From a bacterium (GTDB taxonomy: Bacteria; Sysuimicrobiota; Sysuimicrobiia; Sysuimicrobiales; Kaftiobacteriaceae): a stretch of 37,073 nucleotides of DNA. This document shows, piece after piece, positions 13,360-29,300 of this stretch. The translations under genes and the position numbers were made by a program. Every line of letters begins with the position of its first letter. Position 1 is the first letter of the stretch. Below the pieces are notes generated by a model. It saw nothing but the letters and a program-made list of their open reading frames with translations, did not search any database and was not told where the DNA came from. Location of the stretch: NCBI GenBank assembly GCA_035763845.1, contig DASUAK010000036.1:1-37073 (forward strand), in the 5' to 3' direction.

Positions 13360-13364
13360 TCCCC

Positions 13365-14921: not shown

Positions 14922-15616
14922 GCGCGCCGGCCCGCCCGCTGCTCGACGTCCGGGCCGTCTCAAAGTCCTATGCGGGACGCGCGGCGGTGCGCGACGTCTC
15001 GCTGTCGGTGGAGACGGGAGGGGTGCTCGCGCTGCTCGGTCCGAACGGCGCGGGCAAGAGCACCCTGCTCCGGATCGCCGCGGGCATCGCCCGGCCCGAC
15101 GCGGGCGAGGTCCGCATCGGGGACCGGCCGGTGCGAGAGGCCGCGGCCCGTCGCCGGATCGGCGCTGCGGGGCACCTGTCCTTCCTCTATGGATATCTCA
15201 CGGTGGAGGAGAATCTCGCTCTCTACGCGCGGCTCTACGGTGTCGGTCGGGAGCGGGTCGAGGACGCGCTGGCGGCCTTCGCACTGCTCCCGCACCGGAC
15301 GAAGCCGGTGCGGGAACTCTCCCGCGGCCTGGTGCAGCGGGCGAGCCTGGCGCGCGCCCTGCTGCACGATCCGGCCGTCCTGCTCCTGGACGAGCCCTTC
15401 ACGGGGCTGGACGCGGAAGCGTCCGCCGCCTGCCGCAGGCGGATCCGCACGCTGCGCGACCGCGGATGCGCGATCGTGATGGCCACGCATGCCTGGGCAG
15501 ACGCGCAGGAGCTGGCGGATGAGGCCGTCGTGCTAGCGGGGGGACGGCTGGCACTGCGGGAAGCCGCCTCGGCGCTGGACCTTGCGCGCGTGGCCGCACT
15601 CTACCGGACCGCATGA
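14918..15616 (+). CDS. ccmA: haem exporter ABC ATPase CcmA
   Basis: ATG at 14918 forms an ATGA overlap with the upstream stop. Walker A GPNGAGKST, signature LSRGLVQRASLARAL, Walker B LLLDEP. Followed by ccmB and ccmC. Confidence 0.85.
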   Translation: MSAPARPLLDVRAVSKSYAGRAAVRDVSLSVETGGVLALLGPNGAGKSTLLRIAAGIARPDAGEVRIGDRPVREAAARRRIGAAGHLSFLYGYLTVEENLALYARLYGVGRERVEDALAAFALLPHRTKPVRELSRGLVQRASLARALLHDPAVLLLDEPFTGLDAEASAACRRRIRTLRDRGCAIVMATHAWADAQELADEAVVLAGGRLALREAASALDLARVAALYRTA

Positions 15617-16260
15617 GCACCTTCTGGATCCTGCTGCGCAAGGACCTCGCCGTCGAGGGCAGGGGACGGGAGATGCTTCCGGCGATGGCGCTGCTCGCCC
15701 TGCTGCTGCTCGCTCTCACAGGCGCCTCCGGCCTCCGCCTGGACGGCGCGCCCGCCATCCTCTGGATCACAGTGGCGGTGGCCGCGGCGAGCGGGCTGGG
15801 GCGCAGCTTCCTCCGGGAGACCGACCAGGACCAGCTGCAGGGCCTGCACCTGGCCGCGGTCGATCCCGCCGTGCTCTACCTCGCGAAGGCCGCGGCGAAC
15901 TTCCTCATCGTCGCCGTGGTGGAGCTCGTCGCCGTGGCGGCGATCTTCGTCTTCTTCGATGCGCCGCCGCCGGCGGACGCGGGCGCGCTCGCCGCGGTGC
16001 TCCTCCTCGGCACCGCGGCCCTGGTCAGTCTGGGGACGCTGCTGGGCGGGATGCTCGCCGCCGCGCGCATGCGCGAGGCGCTGCTGCCCCTGCTGCTGCT
16101 CCCGCTCGGGGCGCCGGCCGTGATGGCGGCCTCCGGGGCGACGGCGCGGCTCCTCACCTCCGGCGGCTCCGCCGCCGGCGAGATCCGGCTTCTGCTCGCC
16201 TTCACCCTGTTGTTCGTCGCGGCCTCGGTGCTCGTCTTCGAGCACGTCATCGAGGAGTAG
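15613..16260 (+). CDS. ccmB: haem exporter membrane protein CcmB
   Basis: 215 aa and 6-TM-like. N-terminus LLRKDLAVEGRGREML is typical of CcmB. ATGA overlap with ccmA. Confidence 0.85.
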   Translation: MSTFWILLRKDLAVEGRGREMLPAMALLALLLLALTGASGLRLDGAPAILWITVAVAAASGLGRSFLRETDQDQLQGLHLAAVDPAVLYLAKAAANFLIVAVVELVAVAAIFVFFDAPPPADAGALAAVLLLGTAALVSLGTLLGGMLAAARMREALLPLLLLPLGAPAVMAASGATARLLTSGGSAAGEIRLLLAFTLLFVAASVLVFEHVIEE

Positions 16261-16281
16261 CCCCGGCAGGCGCCGAAGCCG

Positions 16282-16944
16282 ATGATTCCGGGGGTTATGC
16301 GGATGCTGCTGGTGCTGGCTGCCGTCGCCGTTCCCGTCGGCCTCGCGCTCGCGCTGTTCGTCGCTCCGGTGGAAGCGTTCCAGGGTGAGCCGTACCGCAT
16401 CCTGTACGTCCACGTGCCGAGCGTCGCCACAGCCTACCTCGCCTTCACGGTGACGTTCGCGGCGAGCGTGGCCTACCTCATCACGCGCCGCGGACGCTTC
16501 GACCGGTTGGCCGGCGCCTCCGCGGAGATCGGGCAGGTGTTCCTCACCGTCGTGCTGCTGACGGGGCCGATCTGGGGGAAGCCGGTGTGGGGCGTGTGGT
16601 GGACCTGGGACGCGCGCCTGACCACGGCGCTGATCCTCTGGTTCATCTTCGCGGGGTACCTCATGCTGCGCGCCTGGTCCGGTGCGCAGGGGGCGAGGGC
16701 GGCCGCGGTCGTCGCCATCGTCGGATTCCTCGACGTGCCGCTGATCCACTGGTCCGCTGTGCTGCTGCGGACCCTCCATCCCCGGCCCACGGTCTTCCGG
16801 CCCGAGGGGCCGGCGCTGCCGGGGTCGATGCTCGTGGTGCTCCTCTTCAACATCGCGGCCTTCGTCCTCACCTATCTCGCCTTCCTCACGGTGCGCGTCC
16901 GCCAGGAGGCGGCCCGGGAGCAGCTGTCGCAGGCCGGGCCATGA
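16282..16944 (+). CDS. ccmC: haem exporter / haem-handling protein CcmC
   Basis: YVHVPSVATAYL and the Trp-rich WWD motif WGKPVWGVWWTWDARLTT. 220 aa. Confidence 0.9.
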   Translation: MIPGVMRMLLVLAAVAVPVGLALALFVAPVEAFQGEPYRILYVHVPSVATAYLAFTVTFAASVAYLITRRGRFDRLAGASAEIGQVFLTVVLLTGPIWGKPVWGVWWTWDARLTTALILWFIFAGYLMLRAWSGAQGARAAAVVAIVGFLDVPLIHWSAVLLRTLHPRPTVFRPEGPALPGSMLVVLLFNIAAFVLTYLAFLTVRVRQEAAREQLSQAGP

Positions 16945-17054
16945 CGTACGTCGCGGCGGCGTATCTCGTCACGGTCGGCATCCTCGGAGCGTACGCGCTC
17001 TCGCTCTGGCTCCGGCAGCGGTCGCTGCGCCGCCCGCGCGGGGACGGCCGGTGA
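16941..17054 (+). CDS. ccmD: small single-TM protein, CcmD-like
   Basis: ATG at 16941 forms an ATGA overlap with ccmC. The 37 aa MTYVAAAYLVTVGILGAYALSLWLRQRSLRR are one TM helix plus a basic tail. Position between ccmC and ccmE matches ccmD. The following gene starts with a GTGA overlap. Confidence 0.55.
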   Translation: MTYVAAAYLVTVGILGAYALSLWLRQRSLRRPRGDGR

Positions 17055-17440
17055 GGACCTCGCGGAAGCTGGTCGTCGGGCTGGCCGTGATCGTCGCGGC
17101 GATCGGCGCCGTCGCGTACAGCGGCATCCGCTCCGCCGCCGTGTACTACCTCACGCCCACCGAGTTCGCGGGCCGCGCCGACCTGCGATCGGCGCAGGTG
17201 CGGCTCGCGGGCACGGTGGAGGCGGGCACCGTCCGCCGCGACGGCGGGCGGGTCACCGGCTTCCGTCTCAGCGACGGCACCACGGCGATCGACGTCCGCT
17301 ACGGCGGTCCGCTGCCCGACCTCTTCGCGGAGGGCCGCGAGGTCCTCGTCGAAGGGCGCCTCCGGGACGGCGCGCTCGATGCGACGAGGGTCATCACCAC
17401 CCACCCCACCGAATACAAGGAAGGATCTCCCCGGCCGTGA
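17051..17440 (+). CDS. ccmE: cytochrome c haem chaperone CcmE
   Basis: 129 aa. N-terminal TM anchor, AVYYLTPTEF, an OB-fold-like body, and the C-terminal HxxxY haem-binding motif (THPTEY). Confidence 0.85.
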   Translation: MRTSRKLVVGLAVIVAAIGAVAYSGIRSAAVYYLTPTEFAGRADLRSAQVRLAGTVEAGTVRRDGGRVTGFRLSDGTTAIDVRYGGPLPDLFAEGREVLVEGRLRDGALDATRVITTHPTEYKEGSPRP

Positions 17441-19437
17441 CGGCCCTTGGAAGCTTCGCCCTGTACGCCGCACTCGTCGTAACGCTCTACGGGCTGGCCG
17501 CCGGGATCCTGGGGCTGCGGCGACGCGATCCGGTGCTGCTCGAGTCGTCACGCCGCGCCGTCGCGGGATGGGCGGGGTGCATCGCCCTGGCTGCGGCCGC
17601 GCTCCTGTACGCGCTGGTCACGCGGGACTTCTCCATCCGGTTCGTCGCGGAGACGACCAGAGCCGACCTTCCGCTGCTCTATGCCGTGACGGCCTTCTGG
17701 GGCGGGCACGCCGGCTCGCTGCTGCTGTGGGCCCTGGTCCTCGCGCTCTACGGCGCGGTCGCCGCCTCATCCGGCCTGCGGCGCCTGCCGGCGGCGCCCA
17801 TCGTCTTCCTGGTGCTGCTCGGCACCGCGGCGTTCTTCACGCTGATCCTCGCCGCCTCCGGCAACCCCTTCGAGGCGCTGCGCATCCCGCCGCCGGACGG
17901 TCGGGGGCTCAACCCGCTCCTCCGCAATCCGTGGATGGCCGCGCATCCACCCGCGCTGTACCTCGGGTTCGTGGGGACGACGGTGCCGTTCGCTCTGGCT
18001 GTCGCGGCGCTCGCCTCCGGCGATCCGGACGGCGCCACCCTCCGCGCGGCGCGTCCCTGGGTCCGTCTCGGCTGGCTCTTCCTCACGGTGGGGCTGCTCT
18101 TCGGCGCGAAGTGGTCGTACGTCGTGCTGGGGTGGGGCGGCTATTGGGCCTGGGATCCTGTCGAGAACGCGGCGCTGATGCCCTGGCTGACCGGCGCGGC
18201 GTACCTGCACTCGGTCCAGGTCTTCGAGCGCGACGGCACGCTCCGCCGCTGGACCGCCGGCCTGCTGATGCTCTCCTTCGCGCTGGCCATCCTCGGCACG
18301 TTCCTGACGCGCAGCGGCGTGCTCAGCTCGGTCCACGCCTTCGCCAACTCGAGCGTCGGGCCGTACTTCGTGGTGTTCCTCGCGTTTTTGGTCGCCGGAT
18401 CGGCCGCCCTGCTCCTCCGACGGCGCCGGGATGCCGGCGCCGCGGATGCCGGCGCCGGCGGGCAGATCGATTCCCTGCTCAGCCGCGAGGCCGCCTTCCT
18501 CGCCAACAACGTGCTGCTCGTCACCGCCGCGGGCGCGGTGCTGCTCGGCACGCTCTTCCCCATCCTGGCCGAGGTCGTGACGGGCGATCGCATCAACGTC
18601 GGTCCCCCGTACTTCAACCAGGTGTTGCTGCCCGTCGTCGTCCTGCTGCTGCTCCTCATGGCGGTCGGCCCGCTGCTGTCCTGGCGCCGCTCCGACCCGC
18701 GCGAGATGGGCGTGCTGCTGGCCGCGCCCGGGGCGCTCGGTGCGCTGGCCGCCCTAGGGGGGGCGGCTCTGGGTATCCGCCATCCGGCTGCACTGCTCAT
18801 CGGGGCCCTCTGCGTCTTCACCGCGGCCGCGACGGTGGTGGAGGCCGGCCGCGGCGCGGAGGTCCGCCGGCGGCGCGGTGATGCCCTGCCGGTGGCGCTG
18901 GTCCGGGTCGCCGCCCGGGCGCGGACGCGCTACGGGGGCTACCTCGTGCACCTCGGGCTCCTCATCATGCTTGCCGGCATCACGGGGTCTTCCGTCTTCA
19001 CGACGCAGACACAGACCGCCCTTCGGCCCGGCGAGCGCGTGCGCCTCGGTCGCTACGAGGTGCGTTACGATGAGGTCAGCGCCGTCGAGGGAGCCGGCCT
19101 CACGGTGACGGCGGCGGCGCTCACCGCCTTCGACGGGCGGGGCGCGGTGTCGCTCGAGGCGCGGCACGTGCACCACCGCGCGCAGGATGCGATCACGGCC
19201 GAGGTGGCGATCCACAGCACGTGGCGCGACGACTTGTACGTGGTGCTGATCGGGTTGTCCGGCGACCGTCGCGCGACGTTCCGCATCCTCCTGAACCCCA
19301 TGGTCGCCTGGCTGTGGGCGGGGGCGGCGCTCATGGTCGCCGGCGGGACGATCGCGGCGCTCCCGGCCCGCCGCCGGGTGTCGCCGGGCGTCCTGGAGGA
19401 CGCCCGGCAGAGCGCGCAGCCGGAGTTGGTCAGATGA
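17437..19437 (+). CDS. ccmF: cytochrome c haem lyase subunit CcmF
   Basis: 666 aa and polytopic. WWD motif WGGYWAWDPVENAALMPWL. GTGA overlap with ccmE. Confidence 0.95.
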   Translation: MTALGSFALYAALVVTLYGLAAGILGLRRRDPVLLESSRRAVAGWAGCIALAAAALLYALVTRDFSIRFVAETTRADLPLLYAVTAFWGGHAGSLLLWALVLALYGAVAASSGLRRLPAAPIVFLVLLGTAAFFTLILAASGNPFEALRIPPPDGRGLNPLLRNPWMAAHPPALYLGFVGTTVPFALAVAALASGDPDGATLRAARPWVRLGWLFLTVGLLFGAKWSYVVLGWGGYWAWDPVENAALMPWLTGAAYLHSVQVFERDGTLRRWTAGLLMLSFALAILGTFLTRSGVLSSVHAFANSSVGPYFVVFLAFLVAGSAALLLRRRRDAGAADAGAGGQIDSLLSREAAFLANNVLLVTAAGAVLLGTLFPILAEVVTGDRINVGPPYFNQVLLPVVVLLLLLMAVGPLLSWRRSDPREMGVLLAAPGALGALAALGGAALGIRHPAALLIGALCVFTAAATVVEAGRGAEVRRRRGDALPVALVRVAARARTRYGGYLVHLGLLIMLAGITGSSVFTTQTQTALRPGERVRLGRYEVRYDEVSAVEGAGLTVTAAALTAFDGRGAVSLEARHVHHRAQDAITAEVAIHSTWRDDLYVVLIGLSGDRRATFRILLNPMVAWLWAGAALMVAGGTIAALPARRRVSPGVLEDARQSAQPELVR

Positions 19438-20093
19438 GGTCGATGCTTGTCGCCATTGTCATTGCGCTCGCGCCGATCGCTGCAGCTGCGGCGCCATCGC
19501 CGCCGGCACCGCCGGGGGTGGACATCGGCCTCCTCCTGCTCGCCGTCGACGCGAAGCGCGATCATCTGCGCGTCTCCGAAGCGCTGCGGCTGAGCAACAC
19601 CGGTCCGGCCCGGACGCTCGAGCTGCGCGTCCCGCTGCCGGAAGGGGCCGCGTATCTCGCCGTGCATCGCGGGATCGAGCGGTGGCTGCGCACCGCCGGC
19701 GGGTTCACCGCGGTCCTGCGCGTGCCCGCGGGCATTTCCGAGGTGGCGTACAGCTACGCGCTGCCGAGCGGACGCACCGCGGTGATGATCCGCTCCTTCC
19801 CGCTGCGCGTGCAGCGGCTGGAGGTCGTAGCGCGCGGGCGCGGGGTGGGGCTCGAGCTCGACGGCGGCGGGCCCGTCGACGCCGTTCTCCTGGGCGCCGA
19901 AACACTGCCGCGGTGGGAGGTCCGGGCGCTGCCGGCGGGCGAGCCGGTCACGATCCTGCTCGATCGTCTCCCCGTTTCGCATCCGTGGCTCCCCGCCGCG
20001 GGCGCGTCCGGGATCGCCGTGGTCCTGGGGACAGGGCTGATCAGGCACCTCCGCCGTGGCCCGCCGCCGGGGGAGGAGACCTCCAGCCGGTGA
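19434..20093 (+). CDS. hypothetical exported protein with C-terminal TM anchor (no Cys)
   Basis: ATG at 19434 forms an ATGA overlap with ccmF. Signal-like N-terminus MRSMLVAIVIALAPIAAAAA, then a beta-rich body, then a C-terminal hydrophobic helix plus RHLRRG. No CxxC and no recognisable family. Confidence 0.55.
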   Translation: MRSMLVAIVIALAPIAAAAAPSPPAPPGVDIGLLLLAVDAKRDHLRVSEALRLSNTGPARTLELRVPLPEGAAYLAVHRGIERWLRTAGGFTAVLRVPAGISEVAYSYALPSGRTAVMIRSFPLRVQRLEVVARGRGVGLELDGGGPVDAVLLGAETLPRWEVRALPAGEPVTILLDRLPVSHPWLPAAGASGIAVVLGTGLIRHLRRGPPPGEETSSR

Positions 20094-21013
20094 AAGAACC
20101 CATAGTGCTTGGTATGTTGGGTCCCACCCGCCCGCTGTTCGCCCTGCTGGTGACCGGGTCACTGTTCGCTGCCGCGTGCCAGCCGACGGTCAACATCTCC
20201 CGCGCCACGGCGCGCGTCGCATCACCCGGACCGGCGCCGGCCGAGGAGCGCCTGGTGCCGGTGCGCCCCTCCGCGATCGAGGGACGGCGCGTCTTCCAGC
20301 GGGCGCAGTGCGTGGTCTGCCACGGGCCGGAGGGCCTGGGCAACGGCCCGGCCGCGGCGAACCTGAAGTCCCCCGGCAAGAATCTGATGACCGACTTCTT
20401 CCGCCTGCTCGGGATCCGCCTCCGGGGTGAGCAGCTGCCCAGCCGTCCCGCGAACTTCCACAACACGGTGGCGATGCGGCTGAACAGCCCGTTCAGCATG
20501 TACGAGACGGTGACGCGCGGCCGGCCGCACACCGCGATGCCCGCCTTCCCGCCGCGGGGCGGCAAGCCCGCGTACGGCGCGAGCTCCTTCGGCGTGAACC
20601 TCACGGACGCGGAGCGGTGGCACGTTATCTTCCACGAGTGGACCTACCAGAGCACGCCGGCGGAGATCCGGACCGGCCGGCGGCTCTACGAGACGAAGCG
20701 GATCGCCGTGGAGGGCACGGCGCTGACCTGCGCCTCCTGCCACGGGACGGCGGGCGATGGGCGCGGGCCGCGCGGGGCGGAGCTCTCCCGCGAGCTGTGG
20801 CACTGGGCGCGCGGGCAGGGCCCCGGTATCTTCACCGACATCAACCTGATGGCGCAGCGCAAGCCCACCGAGCTGTACCAGGCCATCATCGACGGCCGCG
20901 GGCGGATGCCGGCCTACCGCGGCAAGCTCACCGAAGAGGAGCTGTGGGCGCTGGTCAACTACCTCTACACCTTCGTCTACGACTACCCGTGGGAGGAGGG
21001 GGCCGGGCGGTGA
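20090..21013 (+). CDS. dihaem c-type cytochrome, probable lipoprotein
   Basis: Two CxxCH motifs (CVVCHG, CASCHG), each followed by a Met-ligand context (TAMPAF, GRMPAY). Lipobox-like LFAAAC. Start is either GTG 20090 (GTGA overlap) or ATG 20114. Confidence 0.85.
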   Translation: MKEPIVLGMLGPTRPLFALLVTGSLFAAACQPTVNISRATARVASPGPAPAEERLVPVRPSAIEGRRVFQRAQCVVCHGPEGLGNGPAAANLKSPGKNLMTDFFRLLGIRLRGEQLPSRPANFHNTVAMRLNSPFSMYETVTRGRPHTAMPAFPPRGGKPAYGASSFGVNLTDAERWHVIFHEWTYQSTPAEIRTGRRLYETKRIAVEGTALTCASCHGTAGDGRGPRGAELSRELWHWARGQGPGIFTDINLMAQRKPTELYQAIIDGRGRMPAYRGKLTEEELWALVNYLYTFVYDYPWEEGAGR

Positions 21014-21016
21014 GGG

Positions 21017-21040
21017 CGCGAATGGTTGCGCGCATTCGCG
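21017..21040 (+). other. intercistronic inverted repeat (8-bp stem CGCGAATG / CATTCGCG, 8-nt loop)
   Basis: Read directly in the 50-nt gap between the cytochrome c stop and the Rieske start. No U-tract follows, so it is more likely an mRNA processing or stability element than a terminator. Confidence 0.3.
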
Positions 21041-21063
21041 GCGGCGCGGTATCGTGAAGCGGG

Positions 21064-21732
21064 ATGGATGAGACCTCGTCGCCGCAGCTGAAGCGCCGCG
21101 CCTTCCTCAAGGCGGCCACGGCCGTGCCGGTTGTGGCCGCCCTGGGGGCGCTTGCGTCCCCGCTGCTGCGGCTGCTGAAGCCGAACGTGCCGAAGATGGG
21201 CGTGCTCGCCCCCACGGCGCAGGACGTGGCCCGGGGCGAGGTCACCGTGGCCGCCACCCTGGCGGACCTGCGGCAGCCCTGGGACTACAAGTACTTCGTC
21301 TTCACGCAGCGCTACCCGCAGTACACGTCCGATGGGTTCAAGACCGCCAACGTCCCCGGTGTGGCCATCCGGCTGCCGTACAAGATCCGGCTCCCCCTGG
21401 CCTGGGCGCAGACGATCGGCAAGGAGCCCAAGGTGACGGAGAGCGACATCGTCGTCTTCTCGCGCATCTGCCCGCACCTGGGCTGCATCTACAACTACGT
21501 CCCGAACTGGCGCGAGGTCAGCGCGGGCTACGGGGGCTATGTGCCGCCGCAGCAGCGCCAGCACGCCCTGCTGGCCTGCCCGTGCCACCTCAGCATCTAC
21601 GATCCCGCGGACCAGGCCCAGCCCGGCCGCGTTCTCTCCGGACCCGCGCCGCGCCCGCCCCGGACCTTCCTCTTCGAGCTCCAGGGCGAGCGGATCGTCG
21701 TCACCGACGTCGAGCCGGGCGGGATCGCCTGA
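21064..21732 (+). CDS. qcrA: Rieske [2Fe-2S] iron-sulfur protein with Tat signal
   Basis: Twin-arginine motif KRRAFLKAATAV. Cluster boxes CPHLGC and CPCHLS, including both extra disulfide cysteines. 222 aa. Confidence 0.9.
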   Translation: MDETSSPQLKRRAFLKAATAVPVVAALGALASPLLRLLKPNVPKMGVLAPTAQDVARGEVTVAATLADLRQPWDYKYFVFTQRYPQYTSDGFKTANVPGVAIRLPYKIRLPLAWAQTIGKEPKVTESDIVVFSRICPHLGCIYNYVPNWREVSAGYGGYVPPQQRQHALLACPCHLSIYDPADQAQPGRVLSGPAPRPPRTFLFELQGERIVVTDVEPGGIA

Positions 21733-21737
21733 CGCCC

Positions 21738-22877
21738 ATGTGGGACCGCCTGCGCGACTGGACCCGCGAGCGCCGCGAGAAGCTCGACCTCTTCGACGAG
21801 ACGCTGGTGGCCCGCCAGGCCAACCCGATGTTCCTGCTGGGGCCGCTGCTCTACTACTTCTGGATGATCACCGTGGTCAGCGGCGTCGTGCTGATGATCT
21901 GGTACGAGCCGACGACCACCGGGGCGTTCAGCTCCATCGACCGCATCCAGCACGAGGTGCCGCTGGGCTGGCTTATCCGCGGGCTGCACAAGTACGCCGC
22001 GGACGGCGTGATCGTGACGATCATCCTGCGGATCTACCGGATGTACTTCCTCGGGGAGTACAAGAAGCCGGGCGAGCTGTCCTGGATCCTCGGCTTCCTG
22101 GGCCTGATCCTGGCGATGATCTCCGGGATCACCGGCTACCTGCTGATCTGGAACCAGCGCGCCTTCTGGGCGGCGAAGACGGTGCTCACCGTGCCGGTGT
22201 ACTTCGACGAGATCCCCGTGCTCGGGCCGATGGGCTTCGGCTCGATGATCGCCTACATCTTCCTGGGCGGGCCGGCCGTGGGCCAGGCCACGATCACGCG
22301 CTTCTACGCCCTGCACTTCGGGATCTCACTCGTCCTGTTGATCCTGATCGAGGTCTTCTTCCAGCGCACGCGGCGCAAGCGCATCAGCATGTCGCTGCTG
22401 CCGATGATCCTCTTCCTCGTGATGCTGGTCGTGATCAGCTACGTCCTGCCCGCCGAGTCCGGCCGGCGCGCCGACCCGACGCGCACGCCGCTGCCCATCC
22501 TCTCGGACTGGTACTTCCTGGCCCTGTACCAGTACGTCAAGTACACGCCCCCGCTGTGGGCGGGCCTCGGGCCGGGGCTGCTCATCGGTTTCGGCATGCT
22601 CGTGCCGTTCCTCGATCGCAGCAAGGGCCGCCGGCCGCTGGAGCGCCCGTTCTTCTTCGTCGTCGGCGTCATGGCGCTGCTGTACTTCCTGGTCTTCACG
22701 GTGCTGATCTTGTTCAACATCGCGGTGATCGAGCGCGAGCCGTTCATCGTCATGAACCTCACGCTGCTCGTACTGGCCGCGGCCCTGGTCTGGGAGGTCC
22801 GCCACCGCCGCCGCCGGCGCGCCCTGGCCGCCCGGCCGCCCGCTCCGGCGCCGGGACGCGCCGCGGCGCACGGCTGA
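21738..22877 (+). CDS. qcrB: cytochrome b (fused b6 + subunit-IV-like, 379 aa), variant lacking both n-side haem His ligands
   Basis: ATG at 21738. WLIRGLHKYAADG (helix B), ITGYLLIWNQRAFWAAK and ITRFYALHFG (helix D) are cytochrome b/b6 signatures. PILSDWYF occupies the PEWY position. Confidence 0.9.
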   Translation: MWDRLRDWTRERREKLDLFDETLVARQANPMFLLGPLLYYFWMITVVSGVVLMIWYEPTTTGAFSSIDRIQHEVPLGWLIRGLHKYAADGVIVTIILRIYRMYFLGEYKKPGELSWILGFLGLILAMISGITGYLLIWNQRAFWAAKTVLTVPVYFDEIPVLGPMGFGSMIAYIFLGGPAVGQATITRFYALHFGISLVLLILIEVFFQRTRRKRISMSLLPMILFLVMLVVISYVLPAESGRRADPTRTPLPILSDWYFLALYQYVKYTPPLWAGLGPGLLIGFGMLVPFLDRSKGRRPLERPFFFVVGVMALLYFLVFTVLILFNIAVIEREPFIVMNLTLLVLAAALVWEVRHRRRRRALAARPPAPAPGRAAAHG

Positions 22878-22878
22878 C

Positions 22879-23139
22879 GTGCGAGTCCTCTCGATGGTCG
22901 GGGCCTTCATCGTGGCGATGTGGGCGGTCGGCGGGGGATGGGCGGCCCTGCGCGGGGTCTGGTCGTCCCCCACGGCCGCGGGGGGTGCGGCGGTCGCCGC
23001 GTACACTGCCGCCTTCCTGGCTGCGTTCATCTATCTGGCCTTCTGGGTCTACGCCGCCGACCGGGCCGCGGGCAAGGTCCGGCGGCCGATCGGGCTGTAC
23101 GAGCGCATCCTGAACCGGAGGGGTCCGGGGCATGCGTAG
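22879..23139 (+). CDS. hypothetical small membrane protein (2 TM)
   Basis: GTG at 22879, 1 nt after the cytochrome b stop (or ATG 22894). 86 aa with two hydrophobic helices. GC3-rich frame. No homology recognised. Confidence 0.4.
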   Translation: MRVLSMVGAFIVAMWAVGGGWAALRGVWSSPTAAGGAAVAAYTAAFLAAFIYLAFWVYAADRAAGKVRRPIGLYERILNRRGPGHA

Positions 23140-23332
23140 CGCCTACGCGCTGGGCATCGTGCTGCTGTCAGCGCTCGCCCTGCTGTTCGCGGTGGGGATC
23201 GTCTACGGCGAGATCGGCGACCGCTGGTTCTTCGGCGGCGGCATGATCGGAGCGCTGCTGCTGGCCTACTCCTTTATCGTCCTGTTCCTGCGGAAGTTGG
23301 GGATCATCGGGCCACGGAAGGCGGAGCGATGA
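23132..23332 (+). CDS. hypothetical small membrane protein (2 TM)
   Basis: ATG at 23132 overlaps the previous ORF by 8 nt. 66 aa with two clear TM helices (ALGIVLLSALALLFAVGIVY, MIGALLLAYSFIVLFL). Its stop overlaps the next start (ATGA). Confidence 0.45.
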   Translation: MRSAYALGIVLLSALALLFAVGIVYGEIGDRWFFGGGMIGALLLAYSFIVLFLRKLGIIGPRKAER

Positions 23333-24537
23333 GTCTGACGGCGGGCGCCCCCAGGCCGGCGGAGGCACCGCGCGGGCGGTACGGCCGCGCCATGACGGCG
23401 CTGCTGCGCGGCACCCTGCGGCTGGACGTTCTCATCAACAAGCTGTATCCGACCGACTACAACCCGCTCTACTACACGGGCGGGCTGGCCAACCTCTTCC
23501 TGTTCGTGCTGGTGCTCTCCGGCATCTTCCTCTTCTTCTACTATGAAGCGAGCCTCGGCGGGGCGTTTGCCTCGGTCCGCTACATCACGGAGGGCGTGCC
23601 CTACGGGGGCATCATCCGCGGCATCCACCGCTACGCGGCGGACGGCTTCATCGTGGCGGTCCTGCTGCACCTGTTCCGCAACTGGTTCACCGACCGCTAC
23701 CTCTTCAGCCGCGACAACCCCTGGATCTCGGGGATGTTCCTGCTCGCCTTCGGCGGGTTCGTGGGCTTCACCGGCTACCAGCTCGTCTGGGACGAGCGGG
23801 CGCAGGTTCTGACCAGCCTGTTCCTCGGCATGCTGCGCAGCATCCCCTGGGCGGGCGAGGCGCTGGCCCGCGCGTTCCTCGGCGGCGGGGGGGTGGGGGA
23901 CAGCACGCTGGTGCGCGTCCTCTTCCTGCACGTCGCGCCGGCCTCGGTGCTGTACGTGCTGCTCTGGTGGCACTACACGCGCGTCCGCCATCCGAAGATC
24001 TGGCCGCCCGCGGTGTGGGTCCTGCTCTGCCTGGGCCTGGTCTTCCTGCTGGCCGGCGCGCTGCCGGCCACCAGCGGCCCGCCGGCCACCCCCGCCGGGC
24101 AGCCCGCGAGCTTCCCCATGGACGTCTTCTTCCTGCTGCCGTTCTGGCTGGTGAACTGGCTGCCCGCGGGCGCGGTCGTCTTCCTGCTCGCCGTCCTCCT
24201 CGTGCTCGGCTTCATCATCCCATACGCCGGAGCGCGCGAGCGGCCGGAGGGGATGGAGGTGCGCCACGCCGGCGTGGCCCAGGTCATCGACGGGAACTGC
24301 ACCGGCTGCGAGCTGTGCTACTTCGACTGCCCGTACAACGCCATCGTGATGGCGTCCTCGCCGGCGCCGGGGCTGTCGCGGGCCGCGGCCAACCGCACCC
24401 TGCTGGCTGTCGTCCTCGAGTCGCGCTGCGTGGAGTGCGGGATCTGCATCGGGGCCTGCCCCTTCGAGGCGCTCGAACTGCCGCGCTTCCTGGAGCGCGA
24501 CGTGAAGCAGCTCGTCGCGGAGGCGGTGGGGGCATGA
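23329..24537 (+). CDS. cytochrome b (four-His, dihaem type) fused to a C-terminal 2x[4Fe-4S] ferredoxin domain
   Basis: IIRGIHRYAADGFIVAVLLHLFRNWF has H100/H114 and VLFLHVAPASVLYVLLWWH has H201/H215, both at canonical 14-residue spacing. FTGYQLVWDERA is also cytochrome b-like. Two more TM helices follow. The C-terminal domain carries CTGCELCYFDCP and CVECGICIGACP (CxxCxxCxxxCP twice). Confidence 0.85.
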   Translation: MSLTAGAPRPAEAPRGRYGRAMTALLRGTLRLDVLINKLYPTDYNPLYYTGGLANLFLFVLVLSGIFLFFYYEASLGGAFASVRYITEGVPYGGIIRGIHRYAADGFIVAVLLHLFRNWFTDRYLFSRDNPWISGMFLLAFGGFVGFTGYQLVWDERAQVLTSLFLGMLRSIPWAGEALARAFLGGGGVGDSTLVRVLFLHVAPASVLYVLLWWHYTRVRHPKIWPPAVWVLLCLGLVFLLAGALPATSGPPATPAGQPASFPMDVFFLLPFWLVNWLPAGAVVFLLAVLLVLGFIIPYAGARERPEGMEVRHAGVAQVIDGNCTGCELCYFDCPYNAIVMASSPAPGLSRAAANRTLLAVVLESRCVECGICIGACPFEALELPRFLERDVKQLVAEAVGA

Positions 24538-24992
24538 GCGCCTTCCCGAAGGTCGTCGGATTCGTGTGCGACTGGAGCGTCGATCTGACGCCTCTGCTGG
24601 ACGGCGGAGCGCTGCGCGACGTGCCCGGCGTGCGGATCATCCGCGTGCCGTGCTCGGGGTTCATACGCCCGAGCTGGCTCGAGGACGCGCTGTCCGGCGG
24701 GGCCGACGGCGTCTTCGTCACGGGCTGCCCCTACGGAGACTGCCTGAACCGCGAAGGCAACTACCTCATGCGCGACCGGATCGACCAGCTGCAGCGCCGC
24801 CTGGTTCGCCGGCGGACGGATCCGGCCCGGCTGGGCATGCTCGCGCACGGGCTGCACGACGGGGACGCCTTCCTGGCCGAAGTGCGCGAGTTCGTCCGGC
24901 GGCTGGAGGCGCTGGCGGCCGCGCCGCCCGCCTCCGCCGGGCGCCCCGCGCGTGCGGCCAAGCCGGCTCCGGCGGAGGGAGACCCGGCGTGA
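24534..24992 (+). CDS. MvhD/FlpD-like iron-sulfur protein (methyl-viologen-reducing hydrogenase delta-subunit family)
   Basis: ATG at 24534 forms an ATGA overlap with the upstream stop. VVGFVCDWS...VRIIRVPCSGFIRPSWLEDALSGGADGVFVTGCPYGDCLNREGNYLMRDR matches the FlpD/MvhD domain pattern with its four conserved Cys. No signal peptide. Ala/Pro-rich tail. Confidence 0.75.
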   Translation: MSAFPKVVGFVCDWSVDLTPLLDGGALRDVPGVRIIRVPCSGFIRPSWLEDALSGGADGVFVTGCPYGDCLNREGNYLMRDRIDQLQRRLVRRRTDPARLGMLAHGLHDGDAFLAEVREFVRRLEALAAAPPASAGRPARAAKPAPAEGDPA

Positions 24993-25096
24993 AGCGGCTG
25001 CCCCCCAAGGTCATCGCGGCCTACGTCCTTTACTACATCCTCTGGTTCCTGCTGCTGACGTTCGTGGCCTCATTCGGTTTGATCGCCGAGACCTGA
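24989..25096 (+). CDS. possible 35-aa single-TM peptide
   Basis: GTG at 24989 forms a GTGA overlap with the upstream stop. VKRLPPKVIAAYVLYYILWFLLLTFVASFGLIAET is a basic N-terminus plus one TM helix. Supported only by coupling and hydrophobicity. Confidence 0.3.
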   Translation: MKRLPPKVIAAYVLYYILWFLLLTFVASFGLIAET

Positions 25097-25133
25097 GGAA
25101 AAGTCTATCGCGACATCACGGAGGAGGGCGTCA

Positions 25134-25532
25134 ATGCGTCATCGTGTGGTCCTGGCAGGACTGCTCCTGTTCGCTGCGGGCCTGGCGGTCGCCTGCGGGC
25201 CCGGGGGCGGCGGGGGGCAGGGCGGCGGCGAAGGACAGCCGGGCGGCGGCGGGACCGGCGGAGCCGGCGGGACGGTGAACGTCACGGAGAGCGAGTGGGC
25301 GATCCGCATTCCGGCCGACGTGCCCTCCGGTAAGGTCACCTTCACCGTCAAGAACGACGGGGCCGTGGAGCACAACTTCGTCATCCAGGAGACCAGCCAG
25401 CGCCTGGACGGGATCCAGCCCGGACAGACGAAGACCATCCAGGCCACGCTGCAGCCGGGTACGTATACCGTCGTGTGCGACATCCCCGGGCACAGCGAGG
25501 CCGGGATGACGACCACGATGACCGTCAAGTAA
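25134..25532 (+). CDS. type-1 copper cupredoxin (plastocyanin/auracyanin-like), probable lipoprotein with Gly-rich tether
   Basis: GGAGGAGGG SD upstream. Signal plus LAVAC lipobox-like site, then GPGGGGGQGGGEGQPGGGGTGGAGG as a linker. T1-Cu ligand pattern H (VEHNF) ... C-x2-PGH-x3-GM (VVCDIPGHSEAGM). Confidence 0.85.
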   Translation: MRHRVVLAGLLLFAAGLAVACGPGGGGGQGGGEGQPGGGGTGGAGGTVNVTESEWAIRIPADVPSGKVTFTVKNDGAVEHNFVIQETSQRLDGIQPGQTKTIQATLQPGTYTVVCDIPGHSEAGMTTTMTVK

Positions 25533-25602: not shown

Positions 25603-26574
25603 ATGGACCTGAGCCGGATCTACGCTCCCATCACGGACGATCTCGACCGGCTGCAGGTGCTGCTCGAGCGTGAGCTCATCACGCCCGACCCCTTCATCGG
25701 GGAGCTCGTCCACCACGTCCTGCAGACGCCCGGAAAGCTGATCCGCCCGGCGTTGGTCTGCCTCTCCGCCCAGGCCGCAGGCGGTGCCGGGGAAACGCGC
25801 CTGTGGATCGCCGCGGCCGTCGAGTTGATCCATGTCGCCTCGCTGATCCACGACGACATCATCGACGACGCGGACACGCGCCGCAGCGCCCCCACCGTGA
25901 ACGTGCGCTGGGGGAATCAGATCGCGGTCCTCCTGGGCGACTACCTCTTCGCCAAGGCCTTCGATCTCCTCAGCCGTGTGCGCAGCACCGAGGTGGCCCT
26001 CGCCCTGGCCCGGGCGTCGGTGGAGATGAGCCAGGCCGAGATCCTCCAGATCAAGTACGGCGCGGAGCCGCACGATGACGAGACCGTCTACCTGCGCATC
26101 ATCGGCGGGAAGACGGCCCATCTCTTCTCCGCCGCCTGCCGCGCCGGCGCCCTGGCCGCCGGCAGCGCCGCCGCCGCTGAGGCGCTCGGCGACTTCGGGA
26201 TGCAGTGGGGGATGGCGTTCCAGATCACGGACGACGCCCTCGACCTGACCAGCCGGGCGGAAGCTCTGGGCAAGCCGATCCACAGCGACATCCGCGGCGG
26301 GAAGGTCACGCTGCCCCTCATCCACACCCTGCGCGCGGCCGCGCCCGACGACCGCGCCCGCCTGTTCTCCCTGCTCGGCTCTGGCGCCCCGCTCGACGGG
26401 CAGCTCGCCGAGGTGGAGGCCCTCCTCACCCGCTATCACGGCGTCGAGTACGCGCTCCGCGAGGCGGGGGCCTACTCCCGCCGGGCGGAGGCCGCCCTCG
26501 ACGTGCTGCCTGCCACGCCCGCCCGGGACAGCCTGCGCGCCCTCACCGAGTTCGTCGTCGTCCGCTCGCGGTAG
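25603..26574 (+). CDS. trans-polyprenyl diphosphate synthase (hepta/octaprenyl type, IspB/HepT family)
   Basis: First Asp-rich motif LIHDDIIDDADTRR and second FQITDDALD. 323 aa. Confidence 0.9.
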   Translation: MDLSRIYAPITDDLDRLQVLLERELITPDPFIGELVHHVLQTPGKLIRPALVCLSAQAAGGAGETRLWIAAAVELIHVASLIHDDIIDDADTRRSAPTVNVRWGNQIAVLLGDYLFAKAFDLLSRVRSTEVALALARASVEMSQAEILQIKYGAEPHDDETVYLRIIGGKTAHLFSAACRAGALAAGSAAAAEALGDFGMQWGMAFQITDDALDLTSRAEALGKPIHSDIRGGKVTLPLIHTLRAAAPDDRARLFSLLGSGAPLDGQLAEVEALLTRYHGVEYALREAGAYSRRAEAALDVLPATPARDSLRALTEFVVVRSR

Positions 26575-26579
26575 CGTCC

Positions 26580-27554
26580 GTGCCCGCTCCGGTCGCCGTC
26601 ACGGGGGCAGGAGGCTTCGTCGGGAGCCGCCTCGTCCGACGTCTGCGCGGCGCGGGCACGGCGGTGCGGGCCGTCATCCGCGCCGCCCGGGATGCGGAGC
26701 CGCTGCGGGCCCTCGGCTGCGAGGTGGCCGTGGCGGACGTGACGGACCGGGCCGCTCTCGCCGCGGCCTTCTCCGGATGCCGGGCGGCCGTGCACCTCGC
26801 GGCCATCATCAGGGAGCGGGACGGGCTCACTTTCGACGCCGTCAACCATCAAGGAGCGGCGAACGCCGCGGCGGCCGCGGCCGCCTCCGGCATCGGGCGG
26901 TTCGTCCATCTGAGCGCGCTCAGGGCCTCGCCCGAGGCGGCGCGCTACCTCCGCTCCAAGTGGCAGGGTGAGGAGGCGGTGCGGCGCAGCGGCCTGCCGG
27001 CCGTGATCTTCCGGCCGTCCGTCCTCCTCGGTCCCGGGGGCGGGGCCGCGGCGCAGTTCGCGGACGTCGTGCGGTACGGGCTCTGGTATCCGGTGGTGGG
27101 CGGGCGTGTGCCGGGGCGCCGCCTGGCCGGAACGCTGGCCGCGCTCACGCCGTTCGTGCCGGTGCTCGGAGACGGGCGGTACACCTCGATGCCGGTTGCC
27201 CTCGACGACGTCCTGCCCGCCGTCGCGGCCGCCCTCGAGCGTGACGACGTGCTGGGCGGTACCTTCGAGATCGGGGGGCCGGAGGTCCTGACCTACGACG
27301 AGCTGGTCAGGCGGGTGGCGGCGGTGCTGGGGCTGCGGCGCGTCCTGTGGCACCTGCCCATGCCCGCGGCCCGGGGGCTGCTGCGCCTCTTCGCGCTGCT
27401 GCCCGACCCGCCGATCACCCGGGACGAGTTCGACGCGCTGCTCGTCGACAACGTGTGCGATCCAGCTCCGGCCGTCCGCGCTTTCGGGCTCCGGCTACGG
27501 CCGGTCGAGCAGGCGCTGCGCGAGGCGCTCACCCCGTCCGGGGAGAAAACGTAG
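26580..27554 (+). CDS. SDR-family NAD(P)-binding protein (atypical epimerase/NmrA/NDUFA9-like)
   Basis: GTG at 26580. VAVTGAGGFVGSRLVRRL is a Rossmann GxxGxxG motif. About 324 aa. The ORF-track start at 26205 overlaps the previous gene and is rejected. Confidence 0.75.
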   Translation: MPAPVAVTGAGGFVGSRLVRRLRGAGTAVRAVIRAARDAEPLRALGCEVAVADVTDRAALAAAFSGCRAAVHLAAIIRERDGLTFDAVNHQGAANAAAAAAASGIGRFVHLSALRASPEAARYLRSKWQGEEAVRRSGLPAVIFRPSVLLGPGGGAAAQFADVVRYGLWYPVVGGRVPGRRLAGTLAALTPFVPVLGDGRYTSMPVALDDVLPAVAAALERDDVLGGTFEIGGPEVLTYDELVRRVAAVLGLRRVLWHLPMPAARGLLRLFALLPDPPITRDEFDALLVDNVCDPAPAVRAFGLRLRPVEQALREALTPSGEKT

Positions 27555-28285: not shown

Positions 28286-28468
28286 ATGCCCAACATCGGC
28301 TGGCCGGAGTTGATGGTGATCCTCATCATCGCGCTGTTGATCTTCGGACCGGCGCGCCTGGCGGGGATCGGCGGAGCGATGGGGCGGGCCATCCGGGAGT
28401 TCCGGGGGGCCGTCCGCGACGCCGAGAGCGAGATCGACAAGCCCGCGAACACCGAGAAGCGCACATAG
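28286..28468 (+). CDS. tatA: twin-arginine translocase subunit TatA/E
   Basis: 60 aa. ELMVILIIALLIFGPARLAGIGGAMGRAIREFR carries the TatA TM helix, hinge FGP and amphipathic helix signature. Confidence 0.9.
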   Translation: MPNIGWPELMVILIIALLIFGPARLAGIGGAMGRAIREFRGAVRDAESEIDKPANTEKRT

Positions 28469-28480
28469 ATCGCTGACCAG

Positions 28481-28530
28481 ACACGTTGGACTGCCGGGCG
28501 GAGGCTGCGGCCGTCCAACGTGTTTCGTTT
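28481..28530 (+). terminator. intrinsic terminator/attenuator-like hairpin between tatA and tatC
   Basis: An 11-bp perfect inverted repeat, ACACGTTGGAC (28481-28491) / GTCCAACGTGT (28513-28523), is followed by TTCGTTT. Confidence 0.5.
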
Positions 28531-28559
28531 GCCGGCCTCTGGATGAGACGGGTGGATGA

Positions 28560-29300
28560 ATGGAAGACCGGCCGATGACGATCATCGAGCACCTCGAGGA
28601 GCTGCGCCGGCGGCTCCTCATCGCCATCGTCGCCTTCGCTGCGGGCACCCTCGCCTCGTTCCTCTTCGTCGAGACGATCCTGGGCATCCTCATCCGGCCT
28701 GTCACCGCGGTAGGCGAACAGGTCGTGTTCCTGGCGCCCACGGAGGCGTTCTTCGTCCGCGTCAAGGTGGCCGCCCTCGCCGGCGTCCTGCTCAGCCTCC
28801 CCGTTGTCCTGTACCAAGTGTGGCGGTTCGTCTCGGTGGGGCTGACCCAGCGTGAGCGCCGCTCCACCGTGACGCTGCTCCCGGTCTCGCTGCTGCTCTT
28901 CGTGGCCGGCGGGGCGTTTGCGTTCTTCGCCATCCTGCCGGTGGGCGTCCGGTTCCTGCTGGGCTACCGGACCGAGGCCCTCGTGCCGATGATCTCGATC
29001 GGGGCCTACACCTCCTTCGCCACGGCCTTCGTCCTGTCGTTCGGTCTGGTCTTTCAGCTGCCGGTGGTCGTGCTCTTCCTGGCGCGGCTCGGCATCGTCA
29101 CGCCTGCCAGCCTCGCCCGCGGCCGCCGCTACGCGCTGCTGGGCATTGCCGCCATCTCGGCGGTCCTCACGCCCGGCGGGGATGTGGTCTCGATGGGGAT
29201 GATGGCCGTGCCCACCTACCTCCTCTACGAGATCAGCATCTGGGTGGCCCGCATCTTCGCCCCCGCGCCCGCGCGGCAGGAATCGCTTCCTGCGGACTGA
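28560..29300 (+). CDS. tatC: twin-arginine translocase subunit TatC
   Basis: 246 aa. IIEHLEELRRRLLIAIVAF N-terminus, six TM segments, and PGGDVVSM near the C-terminus are typical of TatC. Alternative start at ATG 28575. Confidence 0.9.
   Translation: MEDRPMTIIEHLEELRRRLLIAIVAFAAGTLASFLFVETILGILIRPVTAVGEQVVFLAPTEAFFVRVKVAALAGVLLSLPVVLYQVWRFVSVGLTQRERRSTVTLLPVSLLLFVAGGAFAFFAILPVGVRFLLGYRTEALVPMISIGAYTSFATAFVLSFGLVFQLPVVVLFLARLGIVTPASLARGRRYALLGIAAISAVLTPGGDVVSMGMMAVPTYLLYEISIWVARIFAPAPARQESLPAD

Follow-up and report, generated by a model that had tools for sequence, protein, structure and literature searches.

Two non-equivalent cytochromes b and a putative cytoplasmic iron-sulfur arm in a Rieske operon of the Sysuimicrobiota

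What becomes of the low-potential electron of quinol oxidation when a Rieske operon encodes two cytochromes b, one of them devoid of ligands for haem bH and the other ending in a ferredoxin domain? This question is raised by a string of nine genes lying between positions 20090 and 25532 on the forward strand of a 37,073-nucleotide stretch of DNA (contig DASUAK010000036.1 of the assembly GCA_035763845.1; hereafter, the window), which comes from a bacterium of the phylum Sysuimicrobiota (CSP1-3). The genes encode, in order, a c-type cytochrome, a Rieske protein, a cytochrome b (b-1), two small membrane peptides (p86 and p66), another cytochrome b (b-2), a protein resembling MvhD/FlpD, a third small membrane peptide (tm1) and a cupredoxin. 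We tentatively read the locus as one variant Rieske/cytochrome b quinol:cytochrome c (cupredoxin) oxidoreductase, built around a b-1/b-2 heterodimer and serving the aerobic chain of the Sysuimicrobiota, an assignment drawn from sequence to which we give slightly less than an even chance. Its components differ in strength: heterodimerisation of b-1 and b-2 seems rather probable and the iron-sulfur (Fe-S) arm stands an even or somewhat better chance of being a real electron exit or entry, and net bifurcation toward a low-potential acceptor is doubtful. By contrast, the subunits themselves, their ligand residues, the side of the membrane on which they lie, the joint occurrence of their genes and the conservation of the whole are established from sequence, and the observation reaches far beyond this one window.

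The non-equivalence of the two cytochromes b carries the argument. Cytochrome b-1 matches the Pfam families Cytochrome_B (1e-33) and Cytochrom_B_C (1e-6), and its N-terminal four-helix domain is nearest to cytochrome b6 (1e-37), in the structures of which H86 and H187 ligate haem bp (bL) and H100 and H202 ligate haem bn (bH). In the alignment to b6, H84 and H193 of b-1 fall on the bL pair, whereas R98 and F207 occupy the columns of the bH pair. The remaining histidines of b-1 are only H72, in a loop on the positive side of the membrane (p-side), and H362 and H378, in the C-terminal tail. A displaced bH ligand is ruled out, given that the alignment columns are unambiguous and that no further membrane-embedded histidine exists; the missing histidines, which the initial annotation had warned might be merely shifted, are not. 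The same pattern recurs in all genuine b-1 orthologues (56/56), which keep the bL histidines, carry Arg at the helix-B bH column and have no His at the helix-D column. The ef loop of b-1 reads SDWYFLALY, a PDWY-like variant with Ser in first place that is invariant across phyla (LSDWYF in 56/56 orthologues). Measured against the canonical Qo segment PEWYFLFAY, it retains the acidic residue, the Trp, the Tyr and the downstream Tyr, and the Qo motif is intact in the sense that every one of these Qo residues is kept. The AlphaFold2 secondary structure of b-1 comprises eight long helices (A-H), in a model of low confidence that is usable for the helix count only (predicted local distance difference test score, pLDDT, 61). 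Without bH ligands, b-1 alone would be a dead end for the low-potential electron.

Cytochrome b-2 is degenerate in the complementary way. It matches Cytochrome_B (8e-27) together with two Fer4 motifs, and its N-terminal four-helix domain is again nearest to cytochrome b6 (3e-27). The four haem-ligating histidines that characterise Rieske/cytochrome b complexes are complete in b-2 (H100, H114, H201 and H215, kept in 66/66 orthologues) and incomplete in b-1, with its R98/F207. The ferredoxin domain spans residues ~318-402 (nucleotides ~24280-24537) and contains two CxxCxxCxxxCP motifs, the eight Cys of which are found in 65-66 of the 66 orthologues (a single sequence has Ser in place of one Cys). 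The AlphaFold2 model of b-2 (pLDDT 81.9; predicted template modelling score, pTM, 0.81) displays six transmembrane (TM) helices (A-F), with helix F at residues 280-300 and the ferredoxin at 318-401, and Foldseek superposes it on bc1 cytochrome b over ~285 columns at 3.5-4.8 Å. All cytochromes b have their N-terminus on the negative side of the membrane (n-side); with six helices and an ef loop that contains neither Lys nor Arg, as seen in the positive-inside counts, the Fer4 domain is accordingly cytoplasmic, and in the model it follows helix F on the n-side. The structural model, the positive-inside counts and the Foldseek match thus agree with the six helices and cytoplasmic ferredoxin of the initial annotation, and the Pfam and bc1 matches identify b-2 as a cytochrome b, a point on which that annotation had left room for doubt.

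At the Qo position b-2 reads PMDVFFLLPF. Its Asp is present in 65/66 orthologues and the rest of the motif varies; PMDVFF, earlier noted as standing where PEWY is expected, is degenerate indeed, but it is not unrelated sequence, being a member of a conserved x-D-[W/V]-[F/L]-[F/Y] motif. Over 257 residues, 33% of positions are identical between the two cytochromes, SDWY of b-1 pairing with MDVF of b-2; they are paralogues, and their common fold suits the canonical dimer. On the n-side b-2 is b6-like, with Arg at the column of b6 R207 in 65/66 orthologues. The Cys that binds haem ci in b6 (Cys35 equivalent) is absent from both b-1 and b-2 in the alignment to b6, which rules out a b6f-like haem ci in either of them. 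Together, b-1 and b-2 would supply three haems. The aligned ligand columns and Qo motifs bear out the complementary degeneracy first noticed in the window, and show it conserved from Sysuimicrobiota to Vampirovibrionia.

The protein encoded after b-2 extends the putative cytoplasmic arm. It matches the Pfam family FlpD (8e-27, 94 bits) and aligns at 7e-20 with 5odc_D, the MvhD subunit of the Mvh-Hdr complex, with respect to which it retains C12, C40, C65 and C70, conserved across lineages. From what is known of the FlpD/MvhD family, we take these four Cys to be the ligands of a [2Fe-2S] cluster. In searches with the HdrA2 model, the ferredoxin domain of b-2 matches positions 569-640 and the MvhD-like protein positions 646-773, a collinearity with the HdrA2 C-terminus by which the cytoplasmic arm looks like a recruited electron wire of Hdr/Mvh type. 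Many b-2 homologues, 500-790 residues long, are single chains with the order cytochrome b-Fer4-FlpD-TM-periplasmic domain, which is collinear with the window genes b-2, mvhD, tm1 and cupredoxin; the fused periplasmic domain is sometimes a cytochrome c (three representatives have a C-terminal cytochrome c). These natural cytochrome b-Fer4-FlpD fusions show b-2 and the MvhD-like protein to be genuine partners. A gene for an Mvh hydrogenase or an HdrA-like flavoprotein was found neither in the window nor in the flanks that related loci have in common.

The gene string behaves as a unit. The window has a GC content of 72% and its credible genes all lie on the forward strand; at such a composition the list of open reading frames (ORFs) fills with long spurious antisense and out-of-frame ORFs, of up to 677 amino acids (aa), and the frame signal given by GC content at third codon positions (GC3) was the sole means of telling real genes from them in the window. 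Each of the nine genes, the small ones included, shows GC3 periodicity in the right frame. Artefacts of the 72% GC are ruled out as an origin of the small ORFs by this signal, by conservation in more than 50 loci and by motifs shared across phyla; the counts of synonymous versus non-synonymous differences against the closest loci lend them mild support only. The Rieske and b-1 genes are separated by 5 nucleotides (nt) and those of b-1 and p86 by 1 nt, the p86 and p66 genes overlap by 8 nt, and the junctions p66/b-2, b-2/mvhD and mvhD/tm1 are overlaps of 4 nt each (ATGA or GTGA). From b-1 to tm1, the 1-nt gap and the overlaps of 4-8 nt bear the signature of translational coupling. All domains named in the initial annotation were recovered by Pfam searches, in the order given there. 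Among curated families none already names these proteins, the best NCBIfam matches (ExtP, cytochrome b6 and HdrA2) lying far under their cut-offs, and for neither b-1 nor b-2 is an NCBIfam cut-off reached.

The small subunits are homologous across phyla. p86, of N-in/C-in topology, has a basic C-terminal tail with the motif Y.YA..R..G+V+R.IG.YE+, recognisable in other phyla, and the position of p66 holds an ORF with two TM helices in most other lineages examined. In the related loci L079-L084 the FlpD gene is succeeded by ORFs of the tm1 type, each with FGL[IV](A/G)E at its C-terminus; the FGLIAE motif occurs only in loci with Rieske and b-1 genes and is absent from Rieske-less loci. In L082, an uncalled ORF at ~6450-6740 on the forward strand, in the gap between b-1 and the gene for an 82-aa protein, encodes a p86-family peptide (…FFSYAEEWAKGNVKRRVRVYEKMIQQF…), an indication that gene callers miss p86 in some assemblies.

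On the p-side, the Rieske protein has CPHLGC as box I (53/53 orthologues) and CPCH[LF]S[IVT]Y[DN] as box II, which reads CPCHLSIY in the window, with a 30-residue insert between the two boxes. It scores exactly the gathering score of the Pfam Rieske family (20.3 bits), contains a TAT signal and has SoxF (1jm1) as closest solved structure. Ser and Tyr after the second Rieske box are hydrogen-bond donors that raise the potential (PMC12954380), and the window protein has this potential-raising pair. The cytochrome c, whose gene precedes that of the Rieske protein in related loci as well, matches the Pfam families Cytochrome_CBB3 and Cytochrom_C over two stretches each; of its earlier description as a dihaem lipoprotein, the two haems stand, and the lipobox (FAAAC) is imperfect, the start being either GTG 20090, which overlaps the stop of the upstream ORF, or ATG 20114. 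The cupredoxin has the type-1 copper ligands H80/C115/H120/M125, a lipobox (LAVAC) and a Gly-rich tether. As a variable accessory electron carrier, it occurs in some members of the phylum only, its place being taken elsewhere by cbb3 genes or a cytochrome c.

The gene string and its complementary ligand pattern recur in ~120 loci of Sysuimicrobiota. The closest relatives, 86-90% identical, are metagenome-assembled genomes including Armatimonadetes bacterium RBG_19FT_COMBO_69_19, and remoter ones bear the names Candidatus Sysuimicrobium, Fervidifonticultor and Calidihabitans (phylum Sysuimicrobiota/CSP1-3). A set of 65 species-level genome loci agrees in the order cytochrome c-Rieske-b-1-p86-p66-b-2-mvhD-(tm1)-(cupredoxin)-polyprenyl synthase, and wherever a genome locus reaches past b-2 on its upstream side, b-1 is there. 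Metagenome contigs, scanned independently by means of b-1-specific motifs, had b-2 downstream of b-1 in 61/61 loci with room for it and the Rieske gene upstream in 71/71. b-1 without b-2 was never encountered in the genome loci, the metagenome loci or the other lineages examined.

Beyond the phylum, an exhaustive profile-free search returned 255 clusters at E<1e-30. Other lineages, at 36-46% identity, share the order (CcoN-CcoO-small ORFs)-cytochrome c-Rieske-b-1-two small ORFs-b-2Fer4-FlpD-small ORF, and one of them carries the NCBI names Vampirovibrio, Vampirovibrionales, Melainabacteria or Cyanobacteria bacterium. In five further lineages the first three ligand columns of b-1 are again occupied by His/Arg(Lys)/His and its SDWYFL does not vary, and b-2 shows four His. 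Outside Sysuimicrobiota the locus usually lies beside a cbb3 oxidase; within the phylum, the Ca. Sysuimicrobium lineage has cbb3-type oxidase genes right after tm1, at the position of the cupredoxin in the window. In Ca. Sysuimicrobium calidum (L060, 7759-10208), ~2.4 kb are inserted between tm1 and the polyprenyl synthase gene and encode a cbb3-like COX1 together with a monohaem subunit of the FixO type and another cytochrome c; a similar insert of ~2.4 kb is found in L040-L045, L048, L059 and L062. These distributions mark the complex as an ancient design, inherited widely and in association with terminal oxidases.

How would such a complex work? A single complex with a b-1/b-2 core is the most economical reading of a b-1 without bH, of the strict co-occurrence of the two cytochromes, of their translational coupling and of a paralogous, dimer-forming fold. 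In it, b-1 would contribute a functional Qo site (SDWYFLALY) and one haem only, bL, and b-2 would contribute bL, bH and two [4Fe-4S] clusters, extended by the presumed [2Fe-2S] cluster of the MvhD-like protein. Quinol, probably menaquinol, would be oxidised at b-1. The first electron would pass through the Rieske protein and the dihaem cytochrome c to the cupredoxin or an oxidase, and the second from bL of b-1 to bL of b-2, then to bH of b-2 and along the Fe-S wire to a cytoplasmic partner encoded outside the locus; the path may also run in reverse. Transfer from bL to bL is catalytically competent in engineered bc1 (PMC4330944). The strongest version of this scheme would be an obligate heterodimer in which each low-potential electron must go from bL to bL and exit via bH into a cytoplasmic [4Fe-4S]2-[2Fe-2S] wire. 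Quinone-based bifurcation would in this way link aerobic quinol oxidation to the reduction of a low-potential acceptor such as ferredoxin, a flavoprotein or NAD(P)+, and both Sysuimicrobiota and respiring Vampirovibrionia/Melainabacteria would have such an enzyme as their standard complex III; this version is possible but on balance unlikely.

Two features speak for a cytoplasmic exit: the links of b-2 relatives to NuoF-like and flavin oxidoreductase modules, including one pair of cytochrome b-Fer4 paralogues that flanks a NuoF-like FMN/NADH module, and the apparent high-potential Rieske protein beside a Qo motif of the PDWY (menaquinol) type. Several others weigh against this exit or against the heterodimer. 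No gene for a cytoplasmic acceptor or donor occurs in the window or in the conserved flanks, and the neighbours of the string in the window (haem biosynthesis, ccm, polyprenyl synthase, NmrA-like, tatAC and mre genes) offer no convincing cytoplasmic partner. The b-2 family exists alone, without Rieske or b-1, by oxidase operons, so it can act without b-1 and presumably homodimerises; its conserved Qo-position Asp may mean that b-2 has retained a quinone pocket of its own; and a Qi site in b-2 may be compatible with the sequence. Moreover, an electron moving from the p-side to the n-side goes against the membrane potential and arrives in the cytoplasm with less reducing power, which makes reduction of NAD(P)+ or ferredoxin thermodynamically tight.

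The possible Qi site leads to a different reading of the arm: the heterodimer might run an ordinary Q cycle, with Qo in b-1 and Qi in b-2, and the Fer4/MvhD arm would be a side entrance, feeding electrons from ferredoxin or from an MvhD-docked group 3c Mvh-type hydrogenase into bH and the quinone pool, much as ferredoxin has been proposed to feed b6f during cyclic electron flow. This would suit the b6-like n-side of b-2, with its Arg at the R207 column, and the role of MvhD as the natural docking subunit of Mvh hydrogenases. Group 3c [NiFe] hydrogenases are present in several Sysuimicrobiota families (PMC11604079), and the complex I of Melainabacteria, reportedly without NuoEFG, would depend on ferredoxin (PMC6349859). 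However, the module is phylum-wide and the 3c hydrogenases are confined to some families, neither cytochrome b has the haem ci Cys, Qi residues could not be confirmed in the sequence, and the locus has no linked gene for a hydrogenase or a ferredoxin; we consider this reading unlikely.

The relatives without Rieske bear on two further explanations. They adjoin A-, B- or C-type oxidase genes and SCO1, all keep four His and an xDW[FLW]Y motif, and one of them is an N-terminal fusion of SCO1 to cytochrome b-Fer4. The locus might accordingly encode two separate, co-transcribed enzymes, namely a quinol oxidising unit of Rieske, b-1 and cytochrome c and a b-2/MvhD enzyme of the PDWF-FeS type described by Kao & Hunte, whose clusters contain no Rieske protein either; the same authors report a cytochrome b deficient in bH in Pyrobaculum, the product of a single cytochrome b gene (PMC4122944). 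Such a division would leave the bL electron of b-1 without an outlet, and it sits badly with a b-1 never seen without b-2, with the place of b-2 among complex-specific small subunits (tm1 with FGLIAE being found only where Rieske and b-1 are) and with genes coupled by overlaps of start and stop codons, so that we give it only a small chance. SCO1, directly upstream of Rieske-less relatives and in the same operon in L166, could instead hint that b-2/MvhD is a transmembrane reductase that passes electrons from the cytoplasm to the periplasm in the service of oxidase biogenesis, for example by maintaining SCO1 or copper in the reduced state. A parallel is offered by CcoG, a cupric reductase with 2x[4Fe-4S], and the window locus does adjoin cytochrome c maturation genes and includes a cupredoxin. 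Yet SCO1 is ordinary in oxidase operons, its lone fusion could be a frameshift or gene-calling artefact, the C-terminal cytochrome c of several relatives suggests electron donation to the oxidase, the window has no SCO1 gene, and the bH-less b-1 would be left unexplained; this function strikes us as very improbable.

Parts of the proposed b-1/b-2 complex have been described before. Kao & Hunte named in 2014 a PDWF-FeS clade of proteins with cytochrome b, 4Fe-4S and MvhD domains, exemplified by Magnetospirillum magneticum and Turneriella parva; in another member the fusion partner is a ferredoxin/flavin oxidoreductase. Their gene clusters contained no Rieske protein, and the clade was left without an assigned function (PMC4122944). 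b-2 plus the MvhD-like protein have this domain architecture, split in the window over two genes with a 4-nt overlap, and full-length homologues with the triple fusion were found; at the Qo position, orthologues and relatives are of the x-D-W-F type (xDW[FL][FY]) and the window itself reads PMDVFF, the likeness being one of architecture and motif. Unlike that clade, b-2 of the window sits in a Rieske operon with a bH-less b-1 and specific small subunits. The Pyrobaculum cytochrome b that lacks a bH ligand comes from the same survey, which did not observe the combination of a PDWY-type Qo motif with a high-potential Ser/Tyr Rieske protein (PMC4122944). For Melainabacteria, Matheus Carnevali et al. 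reported in 2019 'petB, petB, petC' beside a type C oxidase and called them a partial b6f or a complex III/IV fusion (PMC6349859). This 'complex III-IV operon' of Melainabacteria/Vampirovibrionia, CcoN-CcoO-cytochrome c-Rieske-b-1-small-small-b-2Fer4-FlpD-small, is the same set, its published annotation being silent on the missing bH ligands, the Fer4 fusion and the FlpD gene. A Chloroflexi study lists in an appendix table a b6 + DMSOR-beta-like + FlpD protein, and two genome papers on Sysuimicrobiota do not discuss the complex. The initial annotation had stated that no bc-type complex with this subunit set was described, which is overstated in view of the PDWF-FeS clade and of the Melainabacteria genes; it seems to hold for the pairing of b-1 with b-2-FeS, which appears unreported in the open-access text searched. 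Neither PMC4122944 nor PMC6349859 recognises the non-equivalence of b-1 and b-2 or the Fe-S arm within a Rieske operon, and a bH-less b-1, a b-2-FeS and conserved small subunits in one Rieske operon appear to be undescribed in open-access text. The building blocks are known singly, and their combination is a new variant of Rieske/cytochrome b complex.

Comparable to it are the NAD(P)-linked Rieske/cytochrome b complexes of anaerobic ammonium-oxidising (anammox) bacteria, Kuste4569-4574 and Kustd1480-1485, in which a Rieske/cytochrome b core with a cytoplasmic Fe-S chain is proposed to send the low-potential electron off to an acceptor in the cytoplasm, and which likewise have a Rieske protein of the high-potential type and probably use menaquinone (PMC12954380). 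They have features of their own, namely one b6-type cytochrome b with a SUIV-like subunit, for which the model is a homodimer, as well as a GltD-like FAD/NAD(P) subunit and cytochromes c that are hexa- or octahaem (PMC12954380), whereas the window has two non-equivalent cytochromes b, an MvhD-type arm, a dihaem cytochrome c and a cupredoxin, and Pfam detects no flavoprotein among its nine genes. With b6f and the bc complexes of Firmicute type the locus shares the b6-nearest N-terminal domains and the use of a Rieske protein and a c-type cytochrome, but it lacks the haem ci Cys, its b-1 is unsplit, with eight TM helices and bH lost, its b-2 ends after helix F in a ferredoxin, and its core is presumably a heterodimer instead of a homodimer. 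The succession of a ferredoxin domain and MvhD, collinear with the HdrA2 C-terminus, recalls Hdr/Mvh. In the Qmo complex, QmoC is a fusion of dihaem b and Fe-S domains and QmoB carries an MvhD domain, so that these systems have in common a connection between the quinone pool and redox enzymes of the cytoplasm through dihaem b + 2x[4Fe-4S] + MvhD. The window locus differs from them in having no HdrA-like flavoprotein, HdrBC or hydrogenase, and in a haem b domain of the bc1/b6 type (PF00033), not of the NarI/HdrE type.

Table 1. Genes of the Rieske/cytochrome b string (window coordinates) and loci of b-2 relatives that lack a Rieske gene (coordinates of each locus).
Feature	Position	Strand	Characteristics
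Dihaem c-type cytochrome	20090..21013	+	Signal/lipoprotein-like N-terminal anchor; CVVCH + CASCH
Rieske [2Fe-2S] protein	21064..21732	+	Pfam Rieske + TAT_signal; twin-arginine signal/anchor
Cytochrome b-1, 379 aa, 8 TM	21738..22877	+	Pfam Cytochrome_B + Cytochrom_B_C; bL ligands only
p86, 2-TM small subunit	22879..23139	+	GC3 frame signal; found in 54 loci
p66, 2-TM small subunit	23132..23332	+	GC3 frame signal; found in 58 loci
Cytochrome b-2, 402 aa, 6 TM + 2x[4Fe-4S] domain	23329..24537	+	Pfam Cytochrome_B + Fer4 families
MvhD/FlpD-like protein, signal-less	24534..24992	+	Pfam FlpD; presumed [2Fe-2S] carrier
tm1, 35 aa, single TM	24989..25096	+	Homologous ORFs after FlpD gene elsewhere; C-terminal FGLIAE
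Lipoprotein cupredoxin (type-1 copper)	25134..25532	+	Pfam Cupredoxin_1, SoxE, Copper-bind
Rieske-less b-2 relatives	L077 8001-12593; L078 8001-10172; L166 4890-7139; L165 294-2324		Beside aa3-, ba3- and other oxidase genes and SCO1

The surroundings of the string, on the same strand, are largely those of a respiratory 'supercluster', in which a haem operon, ccm genes, the bc-type complex, a polyprenyl synthase gene and tatAC follow one another. Positions 1-10375 hold a complete haem biosynthesis operon with genes for GluTR, glutamate-1-semialdehyde (GSA) aminotransferase, porphobilinogen (PBG) deaminase, UroS, ALAD, a chlorite-dismutase-like protein (HemQ-type), a radical SAM protein, UroD, ferrochelatase and an amine-oxidase-type oxidase, a set that points to the coproporphyrin-dependent route. 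Two coding regions well supported by the GC3 signal and without a Pfam match, of 297 and 521 aa, lie at 10369-11262 and 13356-14921. The genes ccmA, ccmB, ccmC, ccmE and ccmF (14912-19437) are directly upstream of the complex, and between ccmF and the cytochrome c gene an ORF of 194 aa (19509-20093), with a signal peptide, a C-terminal TM helix, no Cys and no Pfam match, is kept at the same position in ~30 related loci at 23-61% identity. Downstream (25603-27554) comes a polyprenyl synthetase, which nearly all related loci also have after the complex, and then, in ~20 of them, an NmrA-like NAD(P)-binding protein; no evidence was found that ties either one to the MvhD-like subunit. tatA and tatC (28286-29300), 3 kb downstream, fit a Tat-dependent Rieske protein, and are followed by radC, mreBCD and a gene for a PBP2-type transpeptidase.

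Electron transfer from bL to bL across the bc dimer has long been debated through engineered asymmetric enzymes; if the proposed path is right, a natural complex with that hop as its only route would offer a ready-made test system. The diversion of the low-potential electron of a Rieske/cytochrome b complex to cytoplasmic Fe-S clusters has hitherto been proposed mainly for anammox bacteria, and the same logic would then operate in aerobic bacteria that abound in soils and hot springs, and also in those sister lineages of Cyanobacteria that do not photosynthesise. The respiratory genes of these cyanobacterial sisters serve in arguments about the origin of b6f and of aerobic respiration, and the label 'partial b6f' misses their nature. 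Even if the Fe-S arm were only an input, or inert, a phylum-wide heterodimeric complex III with three haems would still be a new architecture, of relevance to bc complexes, to electron bifurcation and to the evolution of respiration in the sister lineages of Cyanobacteria.

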